From: a virus | Strand: one strand, 5' to 3' | Virus genome (UHGV): UHGV-0154273 | DNA length: 12,652 bases | In this document: positions 1 to 12,571 of the stretch, one piece after another | How positions within the stretch are numbered: the first letter of the stretch is position 1 | How the letters are laid out: each line of letters starts with the position of its first letter | The notes under the pieces: model-generated | The model's input: only the letters and a program-made list of their open reading frames with translations | What the model was told of the DNA's origin: nothing | Database searches by the model: none | Position numbers and translations under genes: made by a program

Positions 1-72
1 TTTTTTTTCAAGCAGAAGACGGCATACGAGATCGTGATGTGACTGGAGTTCAGACGTGTGCTCTTCCGATCT
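1..72. other. Sequencing adapter contamination: poly-T (1-8) followed by Illumina P7 adapter with 6-nt index and TruSeq read-2 primer site
   Basis: Seen directly: CAAGCAGAAGACGGCATACGAGAT (9-32) + CGTGAT (33-38) + GTGACTGGAGTTCAGACGTGTGCTCTTCCGATCT (39-72), the canonical Illumina indexed adapter. Not biological sequence. Confidence 0.95.
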
Positions 73-834
73 GGAATCGGGCGGCGGCTCGTCTCTGACT
101 TTCTGGAAGCGAACCAAGATAAGTTTTCCCGCCAGACGCTGCAAAACTGGTTAACCTGCTTAGGGACGCTGTATGACTTCGCCCGGCGTAAATATGACAA
201 TATCGCCCCTGATAATCCCTTTCACGGCCACAATCTGGAAGCCCGCCAGACGAACGAAAGTTATCAACCTTTTGAACTACACCAGCTACAGGCATTAATA
301 AAAGAGGCAGGTAGCGAGATACGAGACGTAATCATAATCGGTTTGTATTCCGGTATGCGTCTCGACGAAATCGCCAGCATCAAACGAGTTGAGATTATCA
401 AAGTTGAAGGGGTACGCTGCTTCTACGTCAGCAAATCTAAAACTAAAGCGGGTGTAAGGCACGTCCCCATACACTCGCTGTTAATCAGCATCGTTGATAA
501 ATACCTTGCGCAGAACAACGGTGAATACCTGCTCCCCCAATCGAACAAGATTAAACGTGCCGACGGTAAGCGTGGCCCGTGGTACTCGCAGGCATTTACA
601 CGGCTACGCCGTCGCGTGCTGTCAGCGGCTACAGATCGCCAATGCTTCCACTCCCTGCGTGGTCACTTTATTACTTGCTTAGACAGAGCAGGAGTACCAG
701 AACAGCGCATAGGGGCAATAACCGGGCATACCGAACAAAAAGCTAAAACGGAAGCTTTCAGGACATATAGCAAGGGAGCAGGGATGAAAGAACTATGGGA
801 GTATGTGGAGTTGGTCAGTTATCCGTGTTTATAA
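73..834 (+). CDS. int: Tyrosine recombinase / phage-type integrase, 5'-truncated by the adapter junction (C-terminal ~254 aa present)
   Basis: Translation from 73 contains a core-binding-like region and a catalytic domain with conserved Arg (LYSGMRLDEI), HSLRGHF (His-x-x-Arg box) and a C-terminal GHTEQKAKTEAFRTYSKG with the candidate catalytic Tyr. The Met at 58 in the ORF track is encoded by adapter bases and is not a real start. Stop TAA at 832-834. Confidence 0.85.
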   Translation, partial: GIGRRLVSDFLEANQDKFSRQTLQNWLTCLGTLYDFARRKYDNIAPDNPFHGHNLEARQTNESYQPFELHQLQALIKEAGSEIRDVIIIGLYSGMRLDEIASIKRVEIIKVEGVRCFYVSKSKTKAGVRHVPIHSLLISIVDKYLAQNNGEYLLPQSNKIKRADGKRGPWYSQAFTRLRRRVLSAATDRQCFHSLRGHFITCLDRAGVPEQRIGAITGHTEQKAKTEAFRTYSKGAGMKELWEYVELVSYPCL

Positions 835-860
835 AAAAGGCGCTATAGCGCCTTTCTTTT
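833..860. terminator. Bidirectional intrinsic terminator between convergent integrase and 124-aa gene
   Basis: A-run (833-838), perfect palindromic hairpin GGCGCTATAGCGCC (839-852), T-rich run TTTCTTTT (853-860). Sits exactly between two convergent stop codons. Confidence 0.6.
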
Positions 861-1233
861 AAACATCAAAGATGACATCACCATGATACGCGTTAAACTG
901 CGGATTCCGCATGATGGTGATCACTTGCTGAACTACCCACTTTGCACCGATATCAAGTTCATGCTCTATAGCGCACGGTATAGCAATACCAGATTTCTGA
1001 CACTTGATAGTGAAGGAAAATCCCTCATCTTTGCCTAGAATTGTCTGCAAGTGTTGTCCAATGAAATTTGTAAAAATCACTCTCAACTCAGCTAACGTGA
1101 TTGGAGGTTTATTACGCGGATCATTAAGTCTATCAACAGCAAAATGAAATGACATCTTTAGCTTGGCTCTATCTTCTTCCAAGATATCGTTAATATCTGC
1201 AACTAAATCATCAATCTGCTGTTGAGTTATCAT
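859..1233 (-). CDS. Hypothetical protein, 124 aa; downstream gene of an AT-rich two-gene cassette (possible toxin/effector)
   Basis: ORF with ATGA start/stop overlap with the upstream 69-aa gene. Sampled 60-bp blocks are ~37-42% GC, lower than the rest of the element. No recognisable catalytic motif by eye. Confidence 0.55.
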   Translation of the reverse strand: MITQQQIDDLVADINDILEEDRAKLKMSFHFAVDRLNDPRNKPPITLAELRVIFTNFIGQHLQTILGKDEGFSFTIKCQKSGIAIPCAIEHELDIGAKWVVQQVITIMRNPQFNAYHGDVIFDV

Positions 1234-1439
1234 ATGTGTGCAGCCGTGATCTCAGCTAATTTCTTGTTCAACTCTTCATCGTTTGAAGCTGTGATGGTGC
1301 CTACAAATTCAGTGCGTGATAAAGTACCAGCACGCACATCGAATTCGTAGTTGTCAAACGAATCAACGACGACAAACGCCTTGGTTGCTGGGTTAAAAAA
1401 CGATGCACAATTTTGGTTTGTACGCATATCAAAGTTCAT
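1230..1439 (-). CDS. Hypothetical protein, 69 aa; upstream gene of the AT-rich two-gene cassette (possible antitoxin/partner)
   Basis: Strong SD (AGGAGGA) 4-5 nt before ATG at 1439. 4-bp overlap (ATGA) with the 124-aa gene indicates translational coupling. Confidence 0.6.
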   Translation of the reverse strand: MNFDMRTNQNCASFFNPATKAFVVVDSFDNYEFDVRAGTLSRTEFVGTITASNDEELNKKLAEITAAHI

Positions 1440-1536
1440 ATTATCCTCCTACCCCTTCAAGGGAGATGTAGGAACGAAGTATTCTCAAGTTGAAGCTCAG
1501 TTTGGAGACATATTAGGAAACTGTTTTATGCTCAGC

Positions 1537-1555
1537 CTACGCAATCTACGTCAAT
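1537..1555. promoter_or_regulatory. Tandem imperfect direct repeat CTACG(T)CAAT x2 in the upstream region of the 69/124-aa cassette; candidate operator
   Basis: ctacgcaat (1537-1545) followed by ctacgtcaat (1546-1555), ~100 bp upstream of the cassette start codon on the coding (minus) strand side. Confidence 0.25.
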
Positions 1556-1640
1556 CCGTCAAGAATTGTTTTAAATATAGGCAAGTAACAAGGCAGCCAC
1601 AACAACACATAACCGAATGAAAATAAAAGAAATAATCTCA

Positions 1641-2078
1641 TCACGCATGTTGTCTTGGATAAATAACGCCCAACCCCTTGTATTGTCGGCGGTAGGCAGG
1701 TAGCATGCTTAACATGCTACCTCGTGAGAGTCCGCACAAATTTCCCACATAATAACCACCTTCCGCTGCATTGGCCGAACGATGAACCACAGCGCGCACA
1801 CGTCCAGTTCGGTGACAGTGATCCAATACAGCAGACGCGAGGCGTAGCGGCTTAGCTGTCACCGCGCAGCGTCGGTATTGATAATTCCACAGGAAGACAC
1901 GGACAGCGGCCACATCAGCGCGGCGCAACTCCAGCCGTCCTGAACCATTCAACAGGAAGTGATACACATCATCGAACGCAGCAGAATTTTTAATGCGTTC
2001 CGCTAGCGGCATGTTGCCGAGATATTCCAGATAGCCTCGCATCGCTTTTCTTAGTAGTTGGTCTGTCCGTGTAACCAT
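1641..2078 (-). CDS. Hypothetical protein, 145 aa (last gene of long minus-strand operon)
   Basis: ATG at 2078 preceded by GGAGG SD at 8 nt spacing. Stop TGA 1641-1643. No recognisable domain. Confidence 0.6.
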   Translation of the reverse strand: MVTRTDQLLRKAMRGYLEYLGNMPLAERIKNSAAFDDVYHFLLNGSGRLELRRADVAAVRVFLWNYQYRRCAVTAKPLRLASAVLDHCHRTGRVRAVVHRSANAAEGGYYVGNLCGLSRGSMLSMLPAYRRQYKGLGVIYPRQHA

Positions 2079-2350
2079 GATTCAAAGCCTCCACTGTCAG
2101 ATGCAGCCCGTTTGCAGGCTTCGTATTCTTCGCGCTGGCGTTGGCATACCAGAGCATAAAGCTCGGCGGCCATCGCATTAACACGTTCGTCACTGATACC
2201 ATTGCGGCGCATCAGCCCCAGCAGCTTACGAAATTTAGCTTCAAGCTCAGGCTCTCCGGTATCCATTACCCACTGTTTCAGGTCAGCGAGTGCGCCAGTC
2301 ATTGGTGGCGGCTCGATGTACCGCCACCTTAATTTAATCGTGGTTATCAT
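2051..2350 (-). CDS. Hypothetical protein, ~99 aa (start refined relative to ORF track)
   Basis: ORF track start at 2398 is a TTG. In-frame ATG at 2350-2348 is preceded by AGAGGA SD at ~9 nt and gives MITTIKLRW... Overlaps the upstream gene stop by 17 nt and the downstream gene start by 28 nt. Confidence 0.5.
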   Translation of the reverse strand: MITTIKLRWRYIEPPPMTGALADLKQWVMDTGEPELEAKFRKLLGLMRRNGISDERVNAMAAELYALVCQRQREEYEACKRAASDSGGFESWLHGQTNY

Positions 2351-2759
2351 TTTCTTTATCCTCTCTGTAAGCCGGGTGCATTGCCCGGTATTGCTCAATG
2401 GTCAAACCCTCGCTGGCCGCTGCAAACCGTTCCTTTTGCTTACCCGCCAATCGCAAGGCGCTGTCTCTCCAGCAGAGCAGAAAGAAGATGGTCAGCACCT
2501 GCTTACTCAAGCCATCCAGAAGATCACCAAGCCCTTGCTCCAGAAGACAGGCACGCCATGCAGCGGCGTGCTCAGTCATAGCACCTACTATCGGGACAGG
2601 TGCTCCGAGCATTGTCGCAAGCTGACTCATAACACTGTTAGCATCGCCCGGATGCAGCCGTGGAATAGTCATGCGGCCAGCCTGCGCCAACAGTTCAGCG
2701 TACCGCTGGCGGCGCGGGTCATCATCTGCCAGCGCTCTAATCGGCTTTTCATCAGCCAT
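2334..2759 (-). CDS. Hypothetical protein, 141 aa (speculatively a small-terminase-like packaging factor given its HNH neighbour)
   Basis: ATG at 2759 with GGAGG SD 9 nt upstream. Lies immediately downstream of the HNH endonuclease gene. Function not recognisable from sequence. Confidence 0.55.
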   Translation of the reverse strand: MADEKPIRALADDDPRRQRYAELLAQAGRMTIPRLHPGDANSVMSQLATMLGAPVPIVGAMTEHAAAWRACLLEQGLGDLLDGLSKQVLTIFFLLCWRDSALRLAGKQKERFAAASEGLTIEQYRAMHPAYREDKENDNHD

Positions 2760-2777
2760 TAATGGAACCTCCGAGGA

Positions 2778-3305
2778 TTAGGCAGCCTGCAATAAATCGG
2801 CTGGCGTTGACGGATGGTATCTGGCTTTAGCTTTCAGGTACGCAGCACGCGCCGCCGCTTCGGTAGTGAATAAGCCGAGGTGATGGCGAACACCACCAAC
2901 GCGAATGTAAGCCTCCCATCTGCCAGAGCAGGCATGGTGGCTATAACCCTTGGCTTTGCGGTAATTGTGCTGGTTCTCTTGTGGCGTAACCGTGCGGAGA
3001 TTGATAAGGCGGTTGTCATCGCGTACCGCGTTGATATGGTCGATTTGCATCCCGGCAGGGATACCGTCATTAGCAATGATGAAGGCGACACGGTGGGCGT
3101 ATAGCGCATGAGATTTGCCATTGATGCGGACAGATACGCGCCTATATCCGGCGCTGTCCGTTACCGTGTCGGCCAGTTCCCCGGCTTTAGCGTAAATCCG
3201 CTTGTTGGCTCCGATCCGGTCTACTGCATGGAACAGGCGGCCAGTCTTCGCATCGTACCGAAACAAAGAGCGCAACAGCTCCGGGGCATAAGCATCAATA
3301 TTCAT
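2778..3305 (-). CDS. HNH endonuclease with C-terminal AP2-like DNA-binding domain (phage homing/packaging-associated type)
   Basis: HNH_3-type motif HRVAFIIANDGIPAGMQIDHINAVRDDNRLINLRTVTPQENQHN (His, Asn and His spacing typical of HNH). C-terminal GYSHHACSGRWEAYIRVGGVRHHLGLFTTEAAARAAY resembles the AP2 domain commonly fused to phage HNH nucleases. Confidence 0.85.
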   Translation of the reverse strand: MNIDAYAPELLRSLFRYDAKTGRLFHAVDRIGANKRIYAKAGELADTVTDSAGYRRVSVRINGKSHALYAHRVAFIIANDGIPAGMQIDHINAVRDDNRLINLRTVTPQENQHNYRKAKGYSHHACSGRWEAYIRVGGVRHHLGLFTTEAAARAAYLKAKARYHPSTPADLLQAA

Positions 3306-3321
3306 GGCTCGGCCCCTTTTG

Positions 3322-4317
3322 TTATGCAGCTTGTCGGAAATTTATAACGCAGTCAGGGCGGCGCAGCCCAACATTGAACAGGCGATATGAGTCCATCACC
3401 ATTGTCATTTCGCGTTCATCATCCCACTGGCGATTGATAACGCTCTGCGCTTCGACTGTCACAAGTACAGACGCAGGCCGGAACAGCGTCGCCCGTGTCA
3501 GCGCTTCCCCTGCGGTCACATCATAATCAGCGCCCAGTTCATGCGCGGTAATGGCTTCCTGCGGGTAACTGTTCAGCTCAATAACTCGCACCCCAGCGAC
3601 ATAGCCAACGCGACGCCATGCGTAATCATTGCCACTATCCCGGCTGTAACGGACGTTCATCAACTTCTTATGTTCCATCAGGATGCTGAACCAAGCTGGG
3701 TCGATGAGAAGGCACAGCTCCGCCACCGGAATATCTTTTTCAGTTAGGAATCGATTAACAGCAGCTTTAATAGCGTGAACCAGTTCGTTAGCCGCATCCT
3801 CTTCGCTCCCCGTTGTCAGGTCGAGCGAGACAACATTATCCGTCAGCGGGTTAAACGTTGGTTGCAACGTAGGCGGCGGTACAAAGTCAGTCGCTTTGAT
3901 TAGCTGGATAGTGTGCGCTTCGTCGTAGAACTTTGCATGGGCTGTCCCCATGTTGCGGCTCAGCTCTGCGCGAAAGGTGGGCGCTGTCCAGTCGTCTTGA
4001 TAGTCAATCGGGATGCGGATATAGCTCAGCGTATCCACAGAGATAATCAGCTTGTCCGACTTAACGGCGGTAGGCTCCAGCGATTGCCCTGCGGTTCTGC
4101 CCTTCACCTCCAGATCTCCGCTCAGGCGGTCTACACGATACTGATTACTGTTTTTCAGCGGCTTGTATGTGCTCAGCCCCTCGGCGAGAAACACGCTCTT
4201 TGCCTCAAGGCGGGTCTGAACGTCCCGGTCATACGCTTCAATGTGAATGTCGTTGTCAGCATCTACACCGCCCCAGTGCGGGCGGAATTGGTCAGGGGTA
4301 TAAACATTGTCAGTCAT
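3322..4317 (-). CDS. Conserved-looking 331-aa protein of unknown function; possibly structural (capsid-like), unverified
   Basis: Long clean ORF with GGGAG SD 8 nt upstream of ATG at 4317. No nucleotide-binding or nuclease motif seen. Sits between a Q/N-rich scaffold-like protein and the HNH endonuclease, a context typical of head/packaging modules. Product assignment is inference only. Confidence 0.7.
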   Translation of the reverse strand: MTDNVYTPDQFRPHWGGVDADNDIHIEAYDRDVQTRLEAKSVFLAEGLSTYKPLKNSNQYRVDRLSGDLEVKGRTAGQSLEPTAVKSDKLIISVDTLSYIRIPIDYQDDWTAPTFRAELSRNMGTAHAKFYDEAHTIQLIKATDFVPPPTLQPTFNPLTDNVVSLDLTTGSEEDAANELVHAIKAAVNRFLTEKDIPVAELCLLIDPAWFSILMEHKKLMNVRYSRDSGNDYAWRRVGYVAGVRVIELNSYPQEAITAHELGADYDVTAGEALTRATLFRPASVLVTVEAQSVINRQWDDEREMTMVMDSYRLFNVGLRRPDCVINFRQAA

Positions 4318-4385
4318 AGAAATAGCTCCCGCGCCAGCGTTAGCCAGCGCGATTTATGGAAAAGGGGAAAAGAGAATGGGATGAA

Positions 4386-4733
4386 TCAGGCAGCAGCTTT
4401 TTCAGCCGCGATCTCAAGAATCAGGCCGATAAGCGCGAAGGCAGGCCAATGGGGATTAAGCTCGTGCAGGTGCGCAACGCCCCCACCAAAAGCATCGCGC
4501 ATATCAGCACCAGAGATGCCCGCGCGTTTGGCCGCCCGGCGCAGCAATCGCAGCTCGGAGCCGGGAACATACGCCGAGGGCATACGCACGCCGAAGCGTG
4601 AGGCGAGCCGCCGCCAGTGCGCTTCGTCAGCAAAGTCCTGCTTAAGCTGGCTGGCGTTGGCTTTCCAGTGTTCAATCCTCGCGCTACGGGCAGCCCTAGC
4701 CGCTGCCACGTTTTCAGGTGTCAGTAAGGTCAT
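4386..4733 (-). CDS. Hypothetical protein, 115 aa, Arg/Ala-rich with hydrophobic C-terminus
   Basis: ORF in operon orientation. Weak SD. C-terminal WPAFALIGLILEIAAEKAAA could be a membrane or amphipathic segment. Confidence 0.5.
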   Translation of the reverse strand: MTLLTPENVAAARAARSARIEHWKANASQLKQDFADEAHWRRLASRFGVRMPSAYVPGSELRLLRRAAKRAGISGADMRDAFGGGVAHLHELNPHWPAFALIGLILEIAAEKAAA

Positions 4734-4812
4734 TGTCAGATCTCAATGCAAAGTGGGTTTATGTGTGGTGTTTGAGAGGTAATTTCGCGTTTTACAGGTG
4801 CAGGTATACGAA

Positions 4813-4832
4813 TGTACATCTGGCGATGTACA
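4813..4832. promoter_or_regulatory. Inverted repeat TGTACAT-N6-ATGTACA in intergenic gap between the 228-aa and 115-aa genes
   Basis: Perfect 7-bp arms (4813-4819 and 4826-4832) with a 6-nt spacer. No U-run follows on the coding strand, so a binding site or attenuator-like hairpin is more likely than a terminator. Confidence 0.3.
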
Positions 4833-4892
4833 ACGCGATTCAGGCTCTAAAACGTAAGGTTAAGACGTGGGGAAGACAGGACAGGCGATTGC

Positions 4893-5579
4893 TTAACGGC
4901 CAGCGCGTTTGCCAGCGGAGCGCTGCGCAACCAGAGCGCGGTATTGATCGTCGTACTGGCGATGGCCGGGGCCATACCCTGATTGCTGCGCCCACTGCGA
5001 AAGCTGATCATACGCTGCAATAAACTCAGCATGAGACATACCAACAGGTTGCGAGGCAGGCTGGCCGTATGGGTTCCCCTGTGATGGGACATAACCAGTC
5101 GCAGTGCCTGCGACCATACGCTCTTGCAGATAATGAACCGCCCGCTGCATCTGCGCAGGGTCGCCAGACATAACCATCCGTTCAAGGGTTGATTGCGTCC
5201 CGGCGTCGAGCGTGCCAGCGTACTGCAACATCGCGTCAACTGTCCCCTGCCCTAGCTGGCTTTCGACAGACTGGTGAAACTGCCCCATCAGCCCATGAAG
5301 TTCAGGAGTCAACTCAACAGTAGTGCCATCCTGTAATTGCAGCGTGTCGCCCACTTGCGCAGCAACATCAATCTGCTGGTCTTGCTGGTTGGCAAAGTTA
5401 CTTTCGTTCCAGCTTTGATTAATGTTCGCTGGCTGCGTTTTCAGGAAATCAGCATCAGGTGTTGTCTGGTCGAATCTGCTAGCGCCGTTGTCAGCGCCTA
5501 CAGGTGCGGCCATGTACGGCGATTGCTGCGGCGCAGTATCAGCGCCCGAAAGGTACGGATTAACATTCTGGTCAGCCAT
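4893..5579 (-). CDS. Q/N/G-rich low-complexity acidic protein, 228 aa (scaffold-, decoration- or mimic-like; function unknown)
   Basis: ATG at 5579 with AAGAGG SD ~10 nt upstream. Composition strongly biased to Gln, Asn, Gly, Asp and Thr, with predicted disorder. Immediately follows the stop of the upstream HTH gene. Confidence 0.65.
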   Translation of the reverse strand: MADQNVNPYLSGADTAPQQSPYMAAPVGADNGASRFDQTTPDADFLKTQPANINQSWNESNFANQQDQQIDVAAQVGDTLQLQDGTTVELTPELHGLMGQFHQSVESQLGQGTVDAMLQYAGTLDAGTQSTLERMVMSGDPAQMQRAVHYLQERMVAGTATGYVPSQGNPYGQPASQPVGMSHAEFIAAYDQLSQWAQQSGYGPGHRQYDDQYRALVAQRSAGKRAGR

Positions 5580-5581
5580 GA

Positions 5582-5821
5582 TTATGCAACCTCTTGTGAT
5601 GTAACTCGGCGATGTGCCAGTTCAAGTAAAAGCATGTGCGCGTGTACGCATCGGGCAGGAATCATCTTCTGTCCGTGGTACGCTTTGCCGAGATCTTGTC
5701 TGTCGATCTGGTACACATGAGCCAAATCGATTTGACGAAGATTCAAGGCTTCGGCAATGAATTTCAGTTGTTGCCCGCAATCAGCCGCGCGGCGTGGCTC
5801 CATTAAAATAATGGTGCTCAT
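5582..5821 (-). CDS. Putative small HTH (XRE/Cro-like) DNA-binding protein, ~79 aa (start refined)
   Basis: ORF track start at 5863 is a TTG. ATG at 5821 has GAGGA SD at 7-8 nt. Segment LKFIAEALNLRQIDLAHVYQIDRQDLGKAYHG has a helix-turn-helix-like pattern. Confidence 0.5.
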   Translation of the reverse strand: MSTIILMEPRRAADCGQQLKFIAEALNLRQIDLAHVYQIDRQDLGKAYHGQKMIPARCVHAHMLLLELAHRRVTSQEVA

Positions 5822-5835
5822 GAAATAATCCTCAG

Positions 5836-6069
5836 TTAGATAAGGCCATGACGACGCAACCAACGTCGCTCGCCAACGGAGCCACGCGGTCGCTGCCTTG
5901 GATTCTGGTTTGGTGCTTGGCCGGGATCAGTTCGCCCTTCCCCGGACAGGTTCTGTGTCAGCACATCCCAGCCGCGTGATTCAAACGGGGCGTATCCCTC
6001 GCGCTGTTCGTCAAGGTTCACATAGAGATCAGGGTTAACGGCAGGGTGCAGCGGTTCGTTCTCTGCCAT
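5836..6069 (-). CDS. Hypothetical protein, ~77 aa
   Basis: ATG at 6069 overlaps the upstream stop (TGATG). The track's extra N-terminal Met comes from a GTG at 6072. Confidence 0.45.
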   Translation of the reverse strand: MAENEPLHPAVNPDLYVNLDEQREGYAPFESRGWDVLTQNLSGEGRTDPGQAPNQNPRQRPRGSVGERRWLRRHGLI

Positions 6070-6632
6070 CACTTAGCCCCGAATCGCGTGTTAACGTCTT
6101 CCAAAATATCTGGATAAGACCACTTGCTACGCATCAGGCGCAGGACATGAGCAACAGCCTCAGCAGAGATCCCAAGCTCCCCAGCGATCTCGGTTTGTTT
6201 CCAGCCGAAGCGCTCCAGCTTGTGCATCTGATCGAGGTCGGCGCTCAACAGGCGGCGCATCGTCTGCGGTTTCTCAGGCTTTGCTTTAACTGCTTTCGGC
6301 ATCGGGTGGGTGTGGGCGTTGCTAAAGCGGGAATGGACGATAGCCAGCACAGTTTCAGGCCGAATTAGAAAATCGCGTGCAATGGCATGTGCAGTGTCCC
6401 AGTGGCCGCGCCCCGGTTTCCAGCGCTTACGGATGGCGTTGTATTCCTCCAGCGTAATAGCGGCTTCATCCCTCCACTGGTTGGCAAGGTCGGCTACATA
6501 AACGCCGCGCAGCACCGCGTCAACGTCCTCCGGGTCAAATCCGGTTGCAGCGACTACCTCTTCCACATTGCGAAGGTCGCGCTTAACGAGGGTATTGATG
6601 CGCTGGATATCGGTCAGGCTCAGAACTGTCAT
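6069..6632 (-). CDS. HTH-domain protein, 187 aa (C-terminal sigma-70 region-4/LuxR-like helix-turn-helix; regulator or small-terminase-like)
   Basis: C-terminal DLDQMHKLERFGWKQTEIAGELGISAEAVAHVLRLMR matches an HTH pattern. ATG at 6632 overlaps the stop of the upstream small ORF (ATGA). Confidence 0.6.
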   Translation of the reverse strand: MTVLSLTDIQRINTLVKRDLRNVEEVVAATGFDPEDVDAVLRGVYVADLANQWRDEAAITLEEYNAIRKRWKPGRGHWDTAHAIARDFLIRPETVLAIVHSRFSNAHTHPMPKAVKAKPEKPQTMRRLLSADLDQMHKLERFGWKQTEIAGELGISAEAVAHVLRLMRSKWSYPDILEDVNTRFGAK

Positions 6633-6805
6633 AAGGTAAAGTCTCCATCGAAATTGATTTGATCTTCAATCAGCGTGCGAATGAGTAGCAGGCTGGAAGC
6701 GGTGTGTGTTCCCGTCTTGCGGGCGCTTTCATACATGGCTCGTGCTGCGCTCTGATAGTTCGGCGGCAGGGTTGCAAACCATGCTCTAAACTCTGCGGGT
6801 GTCAT
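6629..6805 (-). CDS. Small ORF, 58 aa, not in the supplied ORF track (below its length cutoff)
   Basis: Translated by hand: MTPAEFRAWFATLPPNYQSAARAMYESARKTGTHTASSLLLIRTLIEDQINFDGDFTL. Its ATG (6805-6803) overlaps the TGA of the upstream 68-aa gene and its TGA overlaps the ATG of the 187-aa gene, fitting the coupled operon pattern. Confidence 0.4.
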   Translation of the reverse strand: MTPAEFRAWFATLPPNYQSAARAMYESARKTGTHTASSLLLIRTLIEDQINFDGDFTL

Positions 6806-7008
6806 TGCTCGTCATCCTCAAATACACGGTTAAATGACGTGTCCGGCGCTTCTACGGCATTGGCCTTAAGGAAGTTGACCGCACTGGATAACTCCGCTGC
6901 GGCCATGCGCGACTCACCAGCCTTGTCTTCCTCAAGGCGGCGGATTAGCGCCCCAAGAAGCAAGCCTTTCATTCGCCACGTTTCATTTTCAAACTCGGTT
7001 TTAGTCAT
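6802..7008 (-). CDS. Hypothetical protein, 68 aa
   Basis: ATG at 7008 lies within ATGACTAA, which also contains the stop of the upstream 145-aa gene. Confidence 0.5.
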   Translation of the reverse strand: MTKTEFENETWRMKGLLLGALIRRLEEDKAGESRMAAAELSSAVNFLKANAVEAPDTSFNRVFEDDEQ

Positions 7009-7438
7009 GCGGATTAACTCCTGTCAGCCCCATTACGCGCAGGTACTGGATTACTTCGGCGTGTACTGGTTTTGGTAAAAAGAGGCGACGCTGCACAGAT
7101 TGAAATATCTCGTCGCGCGTCTTGTTGGCAGGGTGAACAGTCCCATTAAAGACCTCACGAGCCATGCGATAGGTCGGCCAAAGACGAGCGCCATCCTCCC
7201 GGCGTCGGAATCTATTCAGCACAGCGGCCAGACATTCCCAAGGCTCACAGTGATTGAGCAGGCAATACCGCTGTAGCGGCGTACCAGCTTGGCGCAAGAT
7301 GGCCGCACGATTAAGAGTCTGGCGGTGGCGCTCAGCTAACCCATCGAAGGAATATCCGTTCAGGGCGAAGGCAAGTTGTGCGGTGACGAGCGCATCCGCA
7401 CGCGTAGCACGACGCTGCGCATGTTCGGTAACAGGCAT
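7001..7438 (-). CDS. Hypothetical protein, 145 aa
   Basis: ATG at 7438 with TGGAG SD ~8 nt upstream. Follows the helicase stop after a 38-nt gap. Confidence 0.6.
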   Translation of the reverse strand: MPVTEHAQRRATRADALVTAQLAFALNGYSFDGLAERHRQTLNRAAILRQAGTPLQRYCLLNHCEPWECLAAVLNRFRRREDGARLWPTYRMAREVFNGTVHPANKTRDEIFQSVQRRLFLPKPVHAEVIQYLRVMGLTGVNPHD

Positions 7439-7476
7439 ATGGATTAACTCCAGAGAATGAGGGGGAGCCTTTCGAC

Positions 7477-9321
7477 TCAGAGGTATTTAGCGATGTACTG
7501 CCAGTTGCAGTTTTCAGGGCGGTAGAAGTAAGCAAGCTCATCAGGCGCAGCATCCAGCGCCAGCGATGACCACAGCAGAAACGCGCGGGCAGGTTGACCA
7601 TCGCGCCCGGCTCGTCCAATCATCTGAATGAGGTCAGGCAGGTCATCAGGAATATATGTAACGATGACGTTGCGAATGTCTGGCACATCAGCCCCCAGCC
7701 CGAAGGCTTTAGTAGCAATCAGAATTGCGCCCGGCGTAGTGGCAAACCACTCAGCGTTTGCGTGGCGTTCTTCGTTACTCAAGTGCATCGTCTTCGAGTG
7801 ATATGGGCGCGCCCGGTCGCCTAAGAGTTTCAGGTACGCCCGCAACGTCTTAAGGTCATTGACGAGAATGAGCGTCTTCTCTTCTTTCGGCAGAGCCTCG
7901 ACCAGACCAATAGCCGCTCGGAAACGTTCGCGGCACTGTCTGACTGTCGTCAACTGGATATTTTCGCGAGCAACATCAGCACGGAATGTTACGTAATCAC
8001 CACGGCAGCCAAGCGACGCCATTAAACTGCGCTCATTTTCGCGTAGCAGCGTAGCCGTAAATACGCAGCGTTGAGCCGAAAGAAAGGCATGTTGTAGCGA
8101 GTGCTGCATGGCCTCGTAAGCGGGTCGGAAATCCCAGTCTTTAACCGTGTGCGCTTCGTCGATGATAAAACGATCAACGCCGTAAGCCATCAGCGCCGCG
8201 AAGACCTGACTCGACAGAACAAGATGCTCAGGTGAAACGACAGCAACACGGAACGCCCCGGCAGCCAGCCCCGCGAGTTGTTGAGCGTTGCGGTGCCTCG
8301 GCAACTTGTCACCGAATGCCACAGCGTGAACGCCAGCATCCCGCAACTGGCGGAGAATCTGGCGCTTTAGGGTATTAGTGGGAACCACGATTACAGACAG
8401 GCCAACGCCAGCGCGGGACTCATAAATCAATGGATAAGCGAAGGCGGCGGTCTTGCCATAACCCGTAGGCAGAACGGCCAGCACATCACTACCACGGGAG
8501 AAGATCGCATCAGCAACAGACAACTGCCCCGGCCTCCACTCCAGCCCATCGGGTGGCAACAGGCTAACGCGTGCGTTTCGGTCACAGCGAACCAGCGGGC
8601 GAAACTCATAAGAGGCTGTATTCAGTGACGGCACAGACGGCGACACTGCCAAGCCGTTTGGGTCACAATGATGATTTGTACTGTTAAATTTATCCTCGGT
8701 AGGTTTCGACTCTCCACACCACAATTGACGAAACTCCGCTGAGTCCCCGTAGCGTTTGAAATCTGAATTGCGCATCGCTTCCAGTTTATTCATGCCCCTG
8801 TTGATGCGGTGTATAGTCTTCTCATCACAAATCAGGAACTCGCGGCAGGCTTTGAGAAAAGCATTCTGCCCGGTTGTCGATGCCGAAACGGCGTGCTCGC
8901 GCGGTTTCAATGCGGCATCATCTACGCGAACACCGGGAAAATCAGGCGGCAGCGGGTCAGCATACCGAGCAGGCTTCTTGTTGAGCCACATTTCTATCTC
9001 AGCGCGTCGGCAATGAATTGCGTCACCGGGCTGGATGACTTGCCGCAACCCCGTGTCAGAGCGCTGTTTTTGCTTCTTCGGTTGAACACCATGCAGCGCT
9101 CGCCATTCCCGCAGGGTCATAGCGGAGCCATCAGCATTGTAATAAAACTCTTCGGTCTTCGTGTTGTATGCCGCCTTAACGGGTTTATGCTTTATCGGGC
9201 ATATCTTGGAACGCCGAATAACAATCCCGTCAGCGACCATTTGCTGTACATCTGCGTTTGCGGTATTGAGCGGGTCAGCGTCGGCAGCCTGCGCAAGCAA
9301 ACGGCGTAGGTTCGTTGGCAT
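7477..9321 (-). CDS. RecQ-family superfamily-2 DNA helicase (DEAH box) with an unrecognised ~280-aa N-terminal domain; likely replication helicase of the element
   Basis: Helicase motifs read directly: RPGQ (Q-motif-like), LPTGYGKTAAF (Walker A/motif I), SPEHL, IIDEAHTVKDWDFRPAY (DEAH motif II followed by the RecQ-typical aromatic-rich loop), FTATL (motif III), MIGRAGRDGQ (motif VI). No RQC/HRDC tail. ATG at 9321 with GGAGA SD 9 nt upstream. Confidence 0.9.
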   Translation of the reverse strand: MPTNLRRLLAQAADADPLNTANADVQQMVADGIVIRRSKICPIKHKPVKAAYNTKTEEFYYNADGSAMTLREWRALHGVQPKKQKQRSDTGLRQVIQPGDAIHCRRAEIEMWLNKKPARYADPLPPDFPGVRVDDAALKPREHAVSASTTGQNAFLKACREFLICDEKTIHRINRGMNKLEAMRNSDFKRYGDSAEFRQLWCGESKPTEDKFNSTNHHCDPNGLAVSPSVPSLNTASYEFRPLVRCDRNARVSLLPPDGLEWRPGQLSVADAIFSRGSDVLAVLPTGYGKTAAFAYPLIYESRAGVGLSVIVVPTNTLKRQILRQLRDAGVHAVAFGDKLPRHRNAQQLAGLAAGAFRVAVVSPEHLVLSSQVFAALMAYGVDRFIIDEAHTVKDWDFRPAYEAMQHSLQHAFLSAQRCVFTATLLRENERSLMASLGCRGDYVTFRADVARENIQLTTVRQCRERFRAAIGLVEALPKEEKTLILVNDLKTLRAYLKLLGDRARPYHSKTMHLSNEERHANAEWFATTPGAILIATKAFGLGADVPDIRNVIVTYIPDDLPDLIQMIGRAGRDGQPARAFLLWSSLALDAAPDELAYFYRPENCNWQYIAKYL

Positions 9322-9436
9322 GGTGAAATCTCCAAAATTAAGGTGAGTTTAGAACGAGGCGCAGGACGGCAGCGCCGAGCTGCCCGTAGAGAGAATTTCA
9401 TGTCAGCAGTGACGTTGAATGTTCTGTCCCTCTTTA

Positions 9437-9462
9437 GTAGTGACTTTCATGTAGGTCACTAC
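9437..9462. promoter_or_regulatory. Perfect 8-bp inverted repeat GTAGTGAC-N10-GTCACTAC upstream of the helicase operon; candidate operator
   Basis: Arms at 9437-9444 and 9455-9462, ~115-140 bp upstream of the helicase start codon on the coding-strand side. Confidence 0.35.
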
Positions 9463-9510
9463 GTATGCACAAGCGAGTGGTGTTCGTTTTGCCACAGTAG
9501 AAACTCTAAT

Positions 9511-9529
9511 TTGATTATTTTTTAATCAA
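9511..9529. promoter_or_regulatory. AT-rich inverted repeat TTGATTA-TTTTT-TAATCAA in helicase-recombinase intergenic region
   Basis: 7-bp arms (9511-9517 and 9523-9529) with a 5-nt T spacer, within an AT-rich stretch that may hold the operon promoter or an origin-like region. Confidence 0.25.
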
Positions 9530-10211: not shown

Positions 10212-10844
10212 TCACTCTGTAACGCTGGCGGACAGCTCACGTTTGATACGGTAGAACGTTGCCCGGCTTATCCCGGCAGCTTTCATGATGTGCTCTGGTT
10301 TATTCCCAACGGTAAGCATAGCGCGGACAGTTTCACGGGCGCTCTCATCCTTAGACTTCCCGTTATATTTCCCCTCGGCTTTGGCACGCTTGATGCCCTG
10401 CGCTTGGCGTGCTCTGCGTGTCTCGTAGTCCACTCGTGCCATCGTAGCGAGGATATCAATCAGCATTGCGTTAACAGCTCTCAGGATGCCCTCTGTAAGC
10501 TCTGACGCCGTATCGTTCAGTAGTTGCCATGAGGTTGGCAGGTCAACGGCAACGATCACCAGTCCCTTATCCTGAATCCTCTGTTTCAGTGTCGCCCATT
10601 CCTTTTGCGTAAGGCGGCTTAGCCTGTCGATGCTCTCGACAAGCAAGACCTCTCCGGCCTGCGCATCATCCAGCAAGCGCATTAGTTCAGGACGCGCCAG
10701 CCTCGCACCGCTGGCGTTCTCGATGTACTCCGCCCGTACAGGCCAGCCCCGATCACTGGCGAACTCTCGCAGCAAGCCCAGCGCCCGGTCTGCGTGTTGC
10801 TCTGATGTACTGGCGCGGCAATAGATAAGCGCATTGTGTGCCAT
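10212..10844 (-). CDS. Serine recombinase of the resolvase/invertase family, 210 aa
   Basis: N-terminal catalytic region with YCRASTSEQ (Ser nucleophile motif), RPELMRLL and LLVESIDRLSR, which parallel Hin/resolvase motifs. C-terminal HTH (KAAGISRATFYRIKREL). ATG at 10844 with G-rich SD. Confidence 0.85.
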   Translation of the reverse strand: MAHNALIYCRASTSEQHADRALGLLREFASDRGWPVRAEYIENASGARLARPELMRLLDDAQAGEVLLVESIDRLSRLTQKEWATLKQRIQDKGLVIVAVDLPTSWQLLNDTASELTEGILRAVNAMLIDILATMARVDYETRRARQAQGIKRAKAEGKYNGKSKDESARETVRAMLTVGNKPEHIMKAAGISRATFYRIKRELSASVTE

Positions 10845-10970
10845 GCTTCCCCCTAAGTCTCAATGAAATATCACAGCAAGACCTATAAGAGATCACATCA
10901 ATAATGTGTAGTCAATAGAGTTTTATAGATAGTCAAATGAGACAGTGTGTCTATGTCTTTATCAGGTATA
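10845..10970. promoter_or_regulatory. Candidate res-like / autoregulatory region upstream of the serine recombinase gene
   Basis: Short repeats directly upstream of the recombinase start: direct repeats TAGTCAAT (10909-10916) and TAGTCAAAT (10930-10938), palindrome AGACA-GTG-TGTCT (10940-10952), repeated ATCACA motifs (10870-10900). By analogy with Tn3-family res sites lying just upstream of tnpR; inference only. Confidence 0.25.
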
Positions 10971-11561
10971 CCCGAAAGAGACTGGCACCGCCCCACAGCA
11001 GCATTCCCCGGCACATCCAGCGAACACAGCGTAGAGCGCACGCAGCAGATCAGCACGGCACCGCCACGATCTCGAAATCACAAAGGCATTGAATCACACA
11101 TTGGAAGCACAGAACGCAGCACAGAGCGATACAGATCGTTTTAGAGGGATGTACAGATACACAGTGAAAGGCAGATGATCGCAGCACTCGTCCCACACGG
11201 TTATTCAGCAACAGCAATCAGCCAGCATCTCGCTCAGTAGCACGCTCCTGTAATGCTTGTCTCGGATGAGCAAAATCTTAGGGTTTCTCAGCGACCCCTG
11301 ACGCGCGGGCACGCACATGCACACGGGGGCGCGGGCGAGCTATAGAGTTGAGGGAGGGGCAACCATAAGCGTGCAATTTTCAAGCTGGGACTTTTAACAG
11401 TGGGATTGTGGGGCTGTTTTGCATTCAGAGAGTGAGGCTGTGGGGGAGCCCTCCTTGAACCAAATAATGCGAAACTGATCATTCTTCCACGTAGCTTAGG
11501 CCACTTTGCATGGATAATTAGCACCAAACACAGCAGCCAGTTTAAGAGAAATGCGCGACAT

Positions 11562-11780
11562 CTACCGTCTGCGTTTACCCCAGCGCTGCATTATGGCTCT
11601 GTGTGCTTCATCCGCTGACCATTCAATAGGTACAACAACGTGTACAGGCATTTCATCGCCAGAGGGGGCACCACGTAAATGGACTCTATACCCTAGTTTA
11701 TTAAGTTCTACCTCGGACATCGGTGATATAACCTCGCCGCTATGGCTGCCGCCAACAAACTCAGCTTTAAAATCCAACAT
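11562..11780 (-). CDS. Hypothetical protein, 72 aa
   Basis: ORF whose ATG (11780-11778) is preceded, 1 nt away, by a 9-nt homopolymeric G tract on the coding strand. The plus-strand ORF 11551-11874 covers the same DNA; the minus strand is preferred because of operon orientation but this is uncertain. Confidence 0.4.
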   Translation of the reverse strand: MLDFKAEFVGGSHSGEVISPMSEVELNKLGYRVHLRGAPSGDEMPVHVVVPIEWSADEAHRAIMQRWGKRRR

Positions 11781-11781
11781 G

Positions 11782-11790
11782 CCCCCCCCC
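11782..11790. repeat. Homopolymeric tract C9 (G9 on coding strand) abutting the start codon of the 72-aa gene
   Basis: Nine consecutive C at 11782-11790. Potential slipped-strand phase-variation site or assembly-error hotspot. Confidence 0.9.
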
Positions 11791-11823
11791 TACACACTAA
11801 CAAGAATCATTGAAGGTGTATCA

Positions 11824-11841
11824 CCCAGCAACTACGCTGGG
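11824..11841. promoter_or_regulatory. Hairpin-forming inverted repeat CCCAGC-N6-GCTGGG between the 153-aa and 72-aa genes
   Basis: 6-bp arms (11824-11829 and 11836-11841). No immediate U-run, so terminator function is uncertain. Confidence 0.25.
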
Positions 11842-11870
11842 CAGAACATCACCTCGGACTATCAATCAAC

Positions 11871-12329
11871 TTAGTATCGCTTTGTGTCTCGTAGTATTAC
11901 AGACAGTAACCACCACCATTGGCGTTTGATCCAACAAACATCACTGAACATCTTGCCGTCAGATGTTTTGATATAAACCCCGCCACGATGATGCACTTTG
12001 TTGTGATGAGCCTTATTTATGAATGGCACGTTCAAGACCATTTCGTCTCGTGCTTTCAATCTTTTTGGCAGCATCGGTGTGATCATGTTCTCGTCCGAAT
12101 ATTCGTCGGATAACATTCTAAGGCGTCCACTGGCTGTTACCACACCGGCTGCACTCAACGTTACATCGTGTGCGCTTATGTTCGAAACGTATATCCTGTC
12201 CTCGTGCTGATCACATCCGAGATAAAGCCTTAGCGATGTTCTGGATTTTAGTAATTGAAATACGGACAAAGCAAAACCCGCCCACGCCGCGATCCCTGTC
12301 CAGTTATCTGTTTGGGTGATCCAAGTCAT
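11871..12329 (-). CDS. Predicted membrane-anchored protein, ~152 aa (N-terminal transmembrane helix), in AT-rich cassette
   Basis: ATG at 12329 overlaps the stop of the upstream 75-aa gene (TGATG); the track's start at 12332 is a TTG. N-terminal hydrophobic segment WTGIAAWAGFALSVFQLL. Sampled blocks ~37-40% GC. Confidence 0.6.
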   Translation of the reverse strand: MTWITQTDNWTGIAAWAGFALSVFQLLKSRTSLRLYLGCDQHEDRIYVSNISAHDVTLSAAGVVTASGRLRMLSDEYSDENMITPMLPKRLKARDEMVLNVPFINKAHHNKVHHRGGVYIKTSDGKMFSDVCWIKRQWWWLLSVILRDTKRY

Positions 12330-12556
12330 CAAGGCTGCATCCCCTTCGACATAAGATACTTAACGATCCCTTCTCGTTGCCTATTACTCAGCTGAAAACA
12401 TTTGTCTAGTTGAGATAAAACCTGCTCGACATCATCTGCCAAGATGGCACTAGCTGCACGAGCGGGGAGATCTCCCTGAATTTTGATAGTGAAATACCCT
12501 GAAGATATTGATAGCTTCAAAAAACAACCTGCTGAGAACTCGTAACTCTCGCTCAT
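12329..12556 (-). CDS. Hypothetical protein, 75 aa, first gene of right-end AT-rich cassette
   Basis: ATG at 12556 with AGAGG SD 7 nt upstream. Its promoter would have to lie beyond the compositional junction at ~12557-12571. Confidence 0.5.
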   Translation of the reverse strand: MSESYEFSAGCFLKLSISSGYFTIKIQGDLPARAASAILADDVEQVLSQLDKCFQLSNRQREGIVKYLMSKGMQP

Positions 12557-12571
12557 AACCGCCTCTGTTGA

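Follow-up and report, generated by a model that had tools for sequence, protein, structure and literature searches.

An integrative element of Escherichia coli and related bacteria that carries a phiKMV-type capsid gene and is probably an undescribed phage satellite

The window, that is the whole 12,652-nucleotide stretch analyzed here (virus genome UHGV-0154273), holds most of an integrative element of about 14.5 kb from E. coli and related bacteria. The window is not the whole element: it is a contig that begins with 71 bases of Illumina adapter and ends with 76 bases of foreign DNA. The integrase gene is cut by the contig end and measures 1083 nt in an identical chromosomal copy (NZ_LR536431.1). 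The element contains one long operon on the minus strand, of which the RecQ-like helicase is the first gene (Table 1). An earlier sequence-only reading described positions 2334-5579 as a packaging-like module. The ORFs that it named are all present, on the minus strand and at the positions it gave, with the 99-aa ORF lying mostly outside that range.

Table 1 Features of the element in the window (positions count from the first base).
Feature	Position	Strand	Evidence
Tyrosine integrase, 3' part	72..834	+	matches NZ_LR536431.1 'tyrosine-type recombinase/integrase', identical
Integrase-proximal cargo slot, two ORFs (124 aa, 69 aa)	859..1439	-	PHROG 14518 and 14630
Endonuclease VII-like, junction-resolving nuclease family	1641..2078	-	PF02945 E 3e-06; PHROG 423 E 2.9e-15
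99-aa core protein	2051..2350	-	annotated CDS in RefSeq; dN/dS 0.21
141-aa core protein	2334..2759	-	dN/dS 0.25
HNH_3 endonuclease, 175 aa, homing type	2778..3305	-	PF13392 E 1.1e-13; PHROG 99 E 3.5e-48
Major capsid protein, 331 aa, phiKMV/Bonnellvirus type (HK97-fold family)	3322..4317	-	
Variable slot in scaffold-capsid gap, here a 115-aa ORF	4386..4733	-	PHROG 21723 E 1.3e-52
Short scaffolding-protein homologue, 228 aa	4893..5579	-	PHROG 1018 'head scaffolding protein' E 5.4e-05
Two small ORFs (79 aa, 5582-5821; 78 aa, 5836-6072)	5582..6072	-	
187-aa core protein, C-terminal helix-turn-helix; candidate DNA-binding/regulatory factor	6069..6632	-	
58-aa core ORF	6629..6805	-	13/14 loci; no family match
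68-aa homologue of N-terminal half of T7/phiKMV-type TerS	6802..7008	-	
145-aa core protein	7001..7438	-	13/14 loci; dN/dS 0.11; no significant match
RecQ-family DEAD-box helicase; candidate replication protein	7477..9321	-	13/14 loci
Motif copy 1, CCTACATGAAAGTCACTACTAAAGAGGGAC	9426..9455	-	score 28.2 with satellite-derived matrix, 21.8 with phage-derived matrix
Motif copy 2, ATCAAATTAGAGTTTCTACTGTGGCAAAAC	9486..9515	-	score 20.8 with phage-derived matrix
Serine recombinase, resolvase/invertase type, beside operon	10212..10844	-	PF00239 E 6.8e-25; PHROG 125 E 3e-40
Conserved non-coding segment, 43 nt; candidate cis-acting site	11347..11389		
att-distal cargo slot, three ORFs (72, 153, 75 aa)	11562..12556	-	

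The 331-aa protein, listed as of unknown function in that reading, matched PHROG 267 'major head protein' (E 2.8e-67), solved phiKMV-type capsid proteins (PDB 23sf_I, E 4.8e-78; 8eld_A, E 7.7e-75) and Bonnellvirus major capsid proteins (57% identity over 98% of its length). We firmly assign it by homology as the major capsid protein (MCP). It is the most conserved core protein, at 92-97% across genera, with a dN/dS of 0.08. For the Q/N-rich protein, hhalign of the 228-aa family against nine phiKMV-like scaffolds gave, in addition to the PHROG match, 97.4% probability (E 1.2e-11). The homologue is short (228 aa vs 411 aa in Lidtsur), and its residues 124-228 align to residues 310-410 of Lidtsur gp40, the C-terminal third of the phage scaffold. 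The order of scaffold then capsid is the same as in Lidtsur. The 115-aa ORF in the gap between them is present in 8 of the 14 loci compared and has homologues in Aeromonas phages; two other members contain a 137-aa ORF at the same position. Of the annotation 'HNH-AP2' given to the neighboring endonuclease, the HNH_3 part is solid and the AP2 part is weak, the match in the C-terminal region falling below the Pfam cut-off (E 0.049). Its nearest relatives among phages are HNH genes that phiKMV-like phages carry in multiple copies, Drulisvirus phages contain an HNH of PHROG 99 type between their scaffold and MCP genes, and the element family has two allelic types.

The 141-aa and 99-aa proteins had been put forward as small terminase (TerS) candidates on size. 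The 141-aa protein, with orthologues in Enterobacteriaceae only, had no Pfam, PHROG, NCBIfam or PDB match, and its AF2 model was all-helical, of low confidence (pLDDT 62) and without a Foldseek match, giving no TerS signal in either sequence or fold searches. The 99-aa protein, 87-97% identical in 13 related loci, had no match in Pfam, PHROG, NCBIfam or PADLOC. A better candidate is the 68-aa ORF, outside the region first considered. The window protein matched PF11123 DNA_Packaging_2 below the cut-off (E 3.3e-04) and PHROG 891 (E 3.8e-03), and 15 of its 21 orthologues matched PF11123 (best 2e-08). BLASTP to Lidtsur TerS gave E 6e-05, and hhalign of the family against four phage TerS proteins gave 91.7% probability (E 7.6e-07). 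The match covers TerS residues 8-58 of 101, that is, only half of the protein.

The sole window ORF longer than 331 aa encodes the RecQ-family helicase. We scanned 20 ORFs against Pfam and PHROG, and ten of these against NCBIfam, and detected no portal, TerL, protease or tail family; portal, TerL, tail and lysis genes are likewise absent from two relatives with called genes. The sequence-only reading was correct in reporting no TerL, portal, protease or tail genes. The window also lacks a lysis gene and fragments of DNA polymerase, RNA polymerase or tail genes, nor did we identify an excisionase, a repressor or a recognisable replication initiator in the element. For most core genes there is no counterpart in phages at all. 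The helicase matched PF00270 (E 2.2e-22), PF00271 (E 1.7e-14), recQ_fam (E 1.3e-39) and the PADLOC 'DpdF' model PDLC02858 (E 2.7e-268), and carries an N-terminal region of about 260 aa without assigned function. The endonuclease VII-like gene is present in 14 of 14 loci (dN/dS 0.11). The 187-aa protein (13 of 14 loci) has weak helix-turn-helix matches in residues 139-176 (ParB HTH, E 9.4e-04, and others) and no PDB match. The 78-aa ORF occurs in 13 of 14 loci and the 79-aa ORF in nine, with partial matches of 55% identity in four others; neither matched a family in Pfam and PHROG scans. The serine recombinase is found in 13 of the 14 loci, three or four of which have a divergent version (26-34% identity).

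To the extent of the 14 loci, from Escherichia, Enterobacter, Kosakonia, Kluyvera and Trabulsiella, the core gene set and its order are shared, and further orthologues occur in Citrobacter, Cronobacter, Klebsiella and Phytobacter. Relatives of the element are present in 151 of 5426 complete E. coli genomes. dN/dS values of 0.08-0.25, for the 12 core genes where they were computable, indicate purifying selection. Together with the common order, this indicates that the ORF arrangement is not due to chance. Element divergence is out of step with host taxonomy. The element inserts at the 3' end of a tRNA gene by means of a tyrosine integrase that is swappable. Integrase type and att site differ among family members, and the att repeats are the 3' ends of tRNA-Gly or tRNA-Leu. 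The eight att-bounded copies measure 14,471-15,158 bp despite differing cargo, and this narrow range suggests a packaging limit. In the integrase-proximal slot, the 124-aa and 69-aa ORFs are, among the 14 loci, confined to the lineage of the window (L001), and relatives contain type II restriction-modification systems or a ThsB-like TIR protein. The three ORFs of the att-distal slot are absent from the other loci and had no PADLOC, Pfam or PHROG match; relatives carry TIR/bSEFIR, DUF3800 or Mrr-like genes there. The 43-nt non-coding segment retains 93-95% identity in elements from Trabulsiella, Kosakonia, Kluyvera and Enterobacter, which otherwise have no similarity to the window in the surrounding cargo region.

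A motif of about 22 nt occurs in one to four copies upstream of the element operon. In the closest phages (157 kb), a matrix derived from the satellite copies found 6 matches where shuffles gave 0.14; in 1.18 Mb of other phiKMV-like loci it found none. Conversely, a matrix built solely from phage sites found 18 matches in the element loci (243 kb), where shuffles gave 1.5. All 18 lie on the helicase coding strand and upstream of the helicase; every match checked lies 85-590 nt 5' of its start codon. Outside the elements, the motif was almost restricted, among the phage loci examined, to Bonnellvirus/Waewaevirus-type phages. Each phage has sites at two syntenic positions, one overlapping a start codon and the other in frame within a gene. 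Just 5' of the conserved ACTAAGG core, the bases vary from phage to phage but are shared by both sites within a given phage. In the LIMEzero record, a feature with this core, AAGGCAAGCACTA, carries the label 'putative phage specific promoter'. The motif also contains AAGGAG, which resembles a ribosome-binding site. We regard the copies as candidate promoters for a helper RNA polymerase, on the basis of the motif statistics and this one 'putative' annotation.

The closest capsid proteins (51-58% identity) belong to the Bonnellvirus/Waewaevirus phages Lidtsur, J8-65 and LIMEzero, which also share the scaffold C-terminus, the TerS N-terminus and the motif with the element. These are complete virulent phages of 41-43 kb with RNA polymerase, DNA polymerase, portal, tail and TerL genes; all of these are missing from the element, which instead carries an integrase and the RecQ-like helicase. 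P4-like satellites and classical Gram-negative PICIs resemble the element, with its two slots for defence cargo, in their tRNA-linked integrase and hotspots of defence genes (PMC9122126). They use the coat protein of temperate helpers, in contrast to the element with its own capsid and proposed virulent helper, and Pfam, PHROG and NCBIfam scans of the element detected no sid, psu, delta, alpha, alpA or pri-rep. PLE of Vibrio cholerae (helper ICP1) and PICMI of Vibrionaceae are described as chromosomal satellites of virulent phages, as proposed here, and PLE forms small capsids, turns nucleases on its helper and becomes active upon infection. PLE reshapes the helper coat with the external scaffold TcaP and capsid genes are lacking altogether in PICMI, whereas the element encodes its own capsid. 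No sequence relationship to either is evident, and helper group and host differ. The Streptomyces satellites MiniFlayer and MulchRoom are described as encoding their own encapsidation machinery, like the element. They differ in host and phage lineage, are described as without key replication genes and are not known to be integrated.

We searched the literature and found no description of such an element; it is probably an undescribed phage satellite. A group of virulent T7-like phages is the apparent source from which its capsid, scaffold and TerS-like genes were copied. Capsid similarity and the motif both point to the same group, the nearest known phage capsid being only 57% identical. We judge it reasonably likely that the element is a satellite and that the helper it exploits is Bonnellvirus-like and virulent, within the Autographiviridae (T7 supergroup, phiKMV-like). 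From the sequence-only proposal of a satellite, helper dependence and packaging genes without TerL, portal or tail are retained, on firmer grounds than that reading had; the notion that it supplies only specificity factors is not, as the element carries an MCP and a scaffold homologue. That proposal also envisaged a cos-type module in which the HNH enzyme partners the terminase of a helper, with TerS being either the 141-aa or the 99-aa protein. Only HNH adjacency and protein sizes speak for it, but the HNH is of the free-standing homing type (PHROG 99) of phiKMV-like capsid modules, the 141-aa protein gave no TerS signal, the 99-aa protein matched no family and another ORF of the operon is the better candidate for TerS. 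Moreover, the nearest phages of the capsid are of the T7 supergroup, in which JG068, a phiKMV-like phage, is reported to have direct terminal repeats and not cos ends, so that the argument from cos terminases is inapplicable. We consider this module very unlikely. Least probable of all is membership of the capsid-forming PICIs (cf-PICIs). Those of Enterobacteriaceae are, like the element, integrated at about 15 kb in several genera, helper-dependent and equipped with their own capsid protein. cf-PICIs encode all that heads and packaging require (portal, protease, TerS, TerL, connectors) and borrow nothing but tails from the helper (PMC13612085). Tested for these features, the element was rejected as a member: it has only the capsid, the short scaffold and a half-length TerS homologue, without portal, protease, TerL, head-tail connectors or an AlpA or primase-rep family match, and its capsid lineage is podoviral. 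With this gene set, it would also need the portal and TerL of a helper.

A decaying temperate T7-like prophage that lost portal, terminase and tail genes would explain why relatives of phiKMV-like capsid, scaffold, TerS, endonuclease VII and HNH genes lie beside an integrase. It is again highly improbable: the 14 loci, from several genera, agree in gene content and order, size is constant, selection is purifying, no frameshifted remnant was seen among the core genes, polymerase and tail fragments are absent and most core genes are without phage counterparts. A chromosome-bound defence island, in which a diverged capsid, short scaffold and half TerS are expressed upon infection as dominant-negative decoys that poison the assembly and packaging of the helper and the HNH cuts phage DNA, is a lesser possibility that deserves more weight than these. 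Truncated scaffold and TerS proteins are plausible poison subunits, a phage-type promoter motif would mean infection-triggered expression, the family carries other defence genes, and IMG/VR yielded only two close relatives, one of them from an isolate genome. Against it stand the narrow size range despite variable cargo, the full-length and most conserved capsid, the spread across genera without regard to host taxonomy, and a helicase, endonuclease VII and TerS-like gene for which a decoy has no need. In known satellites, interference and transfer occur together, and the two readings therefore overlap.

As a satellite, the element would respond to helper infection through the single-subunit RNA polymerase of the helper, which would transcribe its operon even once host transcription had stopped. 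Its capsid and scaffold proteins would build on helper portals to form capsids sized for 14-15 kb. These would be smaller than those of the helper, an idea whose sole basis is the genome size ratio, 14-15 kb being one third of a 42 kb helper genome. The ratio is also about one third for P4/P2 and SaPI1/80alpha. The TerS-like protein would direct helper TerL onto satellite DNA, with portal, TerL, tail and lysis functions coming from the helper. Possible roles of the HNH enzyme and endonuclease VII are the cleavage of helper DNA or the processing of concatemers of the satellite, and the element probably interferes with its helper too.

The 331-aa protein, for which the sequence-only reading offered no function, is a major capsid protein. 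It is homologous over its full length to characterised phiKMV-type capsid proteins of the HK97 fold, matching PHROG 267 (E = 2.8e-67, residues 1-329) and a solved phiKMV-type capsid protein (PDB 23sf_I; E = 4.8e-78, residues 1-324). Sequence identity is 56-58% over 97-98% of the length to the major capsid proteins of Bonnellvirus coliphages (Lidtsur, J8-65 and others), 51% to that of the Pantoea phage LIMEzero, and at most 45% to those of other phiKMV-like phages. All ORFs named in the sequence-only reading are present in the window, and its description of the Q/N-rich 228-aa protein as scaffold-like is supported: the protein matches PHROG 1018, "head scaffolding protein" (E = 5.4e-05). Comparison of 20 aligned family members to nine phage scaffolds with hhalign gave a probability of 97.4% (E = 1.2e-11) over the last ~100 residues only, which align with positions 310-410 of the Lidtsur scaffold (411 aa). 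The N-terminal 120 residues show no relationship, and this part is shorter. In other phages, the C-terminal end of the scaffold is the capsid-binding part. The scaffold-then-capsid gene order of the element is that of the phages. Judged from sequence, the 228-aa protein appears to be a short scaffold that retains the C-terminal end. This homology is detected by profile methods alone, since tblastn against phage genomes and phmmer against the PDB returned nothing.

The 141-aa and 99-aa proteins had been proposed as small terminase subunits (TerS) on account of their size. A 68-aa ORF, which lies outside the range considered at that time, appears from its homology to be a better packaging candidate than either. 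The protein scores 21.1 bits against PF11123 (DNA_Packaging_2, the T7-type small terminase), for which the gathering cut-off is 27.5, and 15 of its 21 orthologues match this family (best 2e-08). It aligns to the Lidtsur TerS (E = 6e-05), and profile-profile alignment of the family to phage TerS with hhalign gave a probability of 91.7%, confined to TerS residues 8-58 of 101. The AlphaFold2 (AF2) model is a helical hairpin (pLDDT 72), for which Foldseek searches of the PDB and BFVD were uninformative, and a profile search of 1.84 billion representatives recovered just 10 relatives, none annotated as a terminase. The 141-aa protein has orthologues in Enterobacteriaceae only, with no family match and no match in a profile search of PDB sequences; its AF2 model is helical and of low confidence (pLDDT 62), and Foldseek, one of the checks proposed in the sequence-only reading, found no match in the PDB. 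The 99-aa protein has no family match.

The absence of large terminase subunit (TerL), portal, protease and tail genes from the window was confirmed with Pfam and PHROG searches of 20 ORFs and NCBIfam searches of ten, and the same scans found no lysis family. Similarly, no portal, TerL, protease, tail or lysis gene is present among the called genes of two relatives. Thus the virion gene set is incomplete in the window and in these two relatives, as in satellites generally. The only ORF in the window longer than 331 aa encodes a RecQ-family helicase, and the last gene of the operon encodes an endonuclease VII homologue. The 187-aa, 145-aa and 115-aa proteins and the helicase N-terminus had no PDB sequence match. 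What lies between the scaffold and capsid genes varies: eight of 14 loci have a 115-aa ORF in this slot, and two others a 137-aa ORF. The shorter protein (115 aa, PHROG 21723) has homologues of 56-57% identity in Aeromonas myophages. The helicase matches the PADLOC "DpdF" profile PDLC02858 over almost its whole length (E = 2.7e-268) and scores 128 against the NCBIfam DpdF model, which has a cut-off of 550. A Dpd DNA-modification defence system was rejected, as the other Dpd components have no match in the element. PDLC02858 was probably built from this helicase family, and the match puts the element at risk of being mislabelled as a Dpd system by defence annotation pipelines.

As is typical of satellites, the element has its own integrase and att sites: a tyrosine integrase gene lies at one end, and in eight loci the element lies between direct repeats of 23-34 bp that have the sequence of a tRNA-Gly or tRNA-Leu 3' end. 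In E. coli strain 5735 its length is 14,559 bp, and the bounding repeats, 23-24 bp long, match the tRNA-Gly (glyU) 3' end exactly. Seven loci from other genera have a different integrase, sizes of 14,471-15,158 bp and repeats of 25-34 bp, which we take to be the tRNA-Leu 3' end. The glyU site of strain 5735 holds a tandem array, in which the element has on both sides a different, unrelated ~4.4 kb island that contains a 545-aa integrase, a DUF4145 protein and the same 23-bp att core. The core common to 14 loci consists of endonuclease VII, the 99-aa and 141-aa proteins, the HNH endonuclease, capsid, scaffold, five small ORFs (the TerS-like ORF included), the 145-aa protein, the helicase and a serine recombinase; one of the loci is a short IMG/VR contig that covers the integrase-to-scaffold part only, and three or four have a divergent recombinase. 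The integrase, the scaffold-capsid slot and two cargo slots vary. Among complete E. coli genomes, 151 of 5426 contain relatives, which are also present in many other Enterobacteriaceae, and the window copy is 87% identical to Kosakonia and Kluyvera copies and 81% identical to another E. coli copy. Many short-read assemblies (Logan) contain a separate 14.1-15.1 kb contig with just this element (for example 14540, 14588, 14298, 14662, 14831 and 15069 bp), one of which terminates at a tRNA-Leu att site. Such contigs may result from the att repeats, or from an element copy number that differs in those samples. Upstream of the recombinase gene, at a distance of ~500 nt, lies a non-coding segment of 43 nt (GTTGAGGGAGGGGCAACCATAAGCGTGCAATTTTCAAGC) that is 93-95% identical in Trabulsiella, Kosakonia, Kluyvera and Enterobacter elements, in which the surrounding cargo region is otherwise dissimilar to the window. 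It could be a res, pac or origin site.

The window matches the E. coli chromosome NZ_LR536431.1, its nearest complete genome, in two segments at 99.96-99.99% identity. It begins with poly-T followed by an Illumina TruSeq P7 adapter (index CGTGAT), and its last 76 bases are GC-rich and missing from the matching chromosome; by eye, they resemble a piece of a PEP-carboxykinase gene. Both ends of the window are thus artefacts of an assembled contig, and the left one interrupts the tyrosine integrase gene. A 549-bp segment is missing from NZ_LR536431.1, taking with it the 3' end of the serine-recombinase gene. As this segment is found at the same site in 58 other E. coli genomes, it represents a deletion in the chromosome, and an insertion in the window was ruled out. 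No att repeat is left in the identical chromosomal copy, where an IS1 adjoins the integrase end.

Coordinates of features in the window and in compared loci (L numbers)
Feature	Sequence	Coordinates	Strand
Poly-T and adapter	window	1-71	
Segments matching NZ_LR536431.1	window	72-9708; 10258-12576	
HNH endonuclease gene	window	2778-3305	
Scaffold-capsid slot	window	4386-4733	
68-aa TerS-like ORF	window	6802-7008	
Helicase gene	window	7477-9321	
Motif copy	window	9426-9455	minus
Palindrome	window	9437-9462	
Motif copy	window	9486-9515	minus
Segment missing from NZ_LR536431.1	window	9709-10257	
Corresponding site in NZ_LR536431.1	L001	17633-17637	
43-nt conserved segment	window	11347-11389	
GC-rich end	window	12577-12652	
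Tandem array at glyU, E. coli 5735	L003	972-24130	
Defence cargo	L004	12705-14643	
Defence cargo	L008	12693-14614	
Defence cargo	L009	635-1585	
Defence cargo	L006	1097-1873	
Defence cargo	L093	114-1058; 11987-12613	

Every element carries one to four same-strand copies of a ~22-nt motif (consensus ATGAAGGnAnCTACTAAGGAGA) upstream of the helicase. A matrix built from 11 satellite copies was applied to 157 kb from the phages nearest in capsid protein (Bonnellvirus, Waewaevirus and two IMG/VR relatives), where six matches scored at least 17, compared to 0.14 in shuffles; 1.18 Mb from ~70 other phiKMV-like loci gave no match. In the reverse test, a matrix from ten phage sites only found 18 matches in 243 kb of element-bearing loci, compared to 1.5 in shuffles (maximum 6), and one match in the 1.18 Mb of other phages. 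All 18 are on the helicase coding strand, with at least one per element, and those checked are upstream of the helicase. The relationship between the satellite and phage motifs is visible with position-weight matrices only: exact and near-exact searches for the core in Lidtsur and the window did no better than chance, a 48-nt BLAST against all phages found no match, and the promoters of Lidtsur did not emerge from a simple scan for direct repeats.

The phage sites lie on the coding strand at two syntenic positions, one where the structural module begins, past the RNA polymerase gene, and the other ~1 kb ahead of the tail-spike gene. Immediately upstream of the ACTAAGG core, the bases vary among phages and agree between the two sites of one phage (GGCAAGCACTAAGGAG twice in LIMEzero, GTGTCTACTA twice in the phage locus L016), the pattern expected of promoters co-evolving with the phage's own polymerase. 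In the LIMEzero record, a site with the same core (AAGGCAAGCACTA), just past the RNA polymerase gene, is annotated as a "putative phage specific promoter", and Lidtsur has a similar intergenic copy at the corresponding place. The motif copies are thus candidate promoters for a helper RNA polymerase. A caveat is that the motif includes AAGGAG, which is also similar to a ribosome-binding site. A conserved peptide start was rejected, since several copies have ATT, ATA or TAG in place of the ATG. In the window, a possible operator, a palindrome of 13+13 nt (GTAGTGACTTTCA/TGTAGGTCACTAC), overlaps the stronger of the motif copies. An Rfam scan of the window gave no match, and scans for sigma-70 promoters and terminators gave chance-level results only.

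On balance, we consider the satellite reading, taken as a whole, to be probable, with a virulent Bonnellvirus-like phage as the helper. On infection, the single-subunit RNA polymerase of the phage would transcribe the satellite operon. The satellite capsid protein and short scaffold, together with the helper portal, would form capsids fit for 14-15 kb, which is a third of the length of the helper genome (~42 kb), a ratio also seen for P4/P2 and SaPI1/80alpha; the small capsids themselves are a somewhat doubtful part of this scheme. The TerS-like protein would steer the helper TerL to satellite DNA, or block the helper TerS, and tail and lysis functions would come from the helper. The helper-type promoter motif and the narrow range of element sizes speak only indirectly for induction, packaging and transfer by such a phage. 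More speculatively, the HNH endonuclease may cut capsid-module alleles of the helper, much as the nucleases of PLE act against ICP1, a role to which we attach less confidence than to the satellite reading itself. The joint reading, which we regard as finely balanced and fall just short of favoring, would combine tandem helper-polymerase promoters as infection sensor and expression switch, a shell pair (capsid and shortened scaffold) and the DNA-recognition half of TerS from the satellite, and portal, motor, tail and lysis from the helper. The promoters might also, again speculatively and by analogy with the T7 primary origin, prime replication, and promoter variants in one element may widen the helper range.

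Several other explanations were weighed against the satellite reading. A cos/HNH specificity module, with the endonuclease as partner of a cos-type terminase, is contradicted by the features of the gene. The "HNH-AP2" label stands for its first half, the HNH_3 match being solid and the AP2 match marginal, and the protein falls in PHROG 99, with the multi-copy free-standing HNH genes of phiKMV-like phages as nearest phage relatives. In Drulisvirus phages, a PHROG 99-type HNH gene is located exactly between the scaffold and capsid genes. HK97-like cos systems have a small HNH gene beside TerS/TerL and portal; here TerL and portal are absent, and the context of the HNH gene is that of a homing endonuclease and not of an HK97-type terminase partner. 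Two allelic types of the gene occur, with 87% identity to the window in two loci and 63-66% in eleven, while the adjacent capsid gene stays 92-97% identical, which suggests endonuclease replacement by recombination. A prophage remnant is contradicted by the tested features: the shared core, the selection on it (dN/dS of 0.08-0.25 for core genes between two E. coli copies, not computable for the TerS-like ORF owing to saturated synonymous sites), the sizes and the distribution rule out a decaying prophage and point to an element that is actively exchanged under a size constraint.

The main alternative is a defence island that does not transfer and uses its capsid, scaffold and TerS proteins as decoys. 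The cargo slots of relatives contain two different type II restriction-modification systems, one with an Eco47II-family nuclease, as well as an Mrr-like nuclease, a DUF3800 protein (PADLOC candidate PDC-M04A), a bSEFIR/TIR protein and a ThsB-like TIR protein, whereas the cargo ORFs of the window have no defence-family match. We consider this alternative unlikely; it overlaps with the interference expected of a satellite. Membership of the cf-PICIs is contradicted by the gene content. These encode their own capsid, portal, protease, head-tail connectors, TerS and TerL (PMC13612085), whereas the element has just the capsid protein and a half-length TerS homologue, along with a scaffold. The int-alpA-pri/rep module of PICIs and cf-PICIs is also absent, with no AlpA or primase family match in any ORF and the RecQ-family helicase as the replication candidate.

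The satellite that we propose differs from other known satellites as well. The sid, psu, delta and alpha primase genes of P4-like satellites have no PHROG, Pfam or NCBIfam match in the element. PLE, with its Vibrio host and ICP1 helper, differs in both host and helper lineage, and PLE and PICMI, satellites of virulent phages, are not known to encode a capsid protein, unlike the element. Literature searches, including protein accessions and satellite, T7-like and Bonnellvirus topics, found no description of the element. To our knowledge, and consistent with the literature searched, no satellite of a T7-like phage has been described so far, and the E. coli satellites that we know of all use temperate helpers. 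The element would thus be a new satellite family with a new strategy. If confirmed, it would stand at a third level of capsid dependence, intermediate between the reshaping of helper coat (P4, SaPI, PLE) and the whole head of cf-PICIs, and would be the first satellite to sense the helper's own RNA polymerase via copied promoters. The phage loci that share the capsid relationship and the motif belong to phiKMV-like podophages of Escherichia, Enterobacter, Pantoea, Kosakonia and Cronobacter. Therapy cocktails make use of phiKMV-like phages. Given these hosts, this use and its own spread, the element could both block such phages and spread its restriction-modification and TIR-type defence cargo via their lysates.
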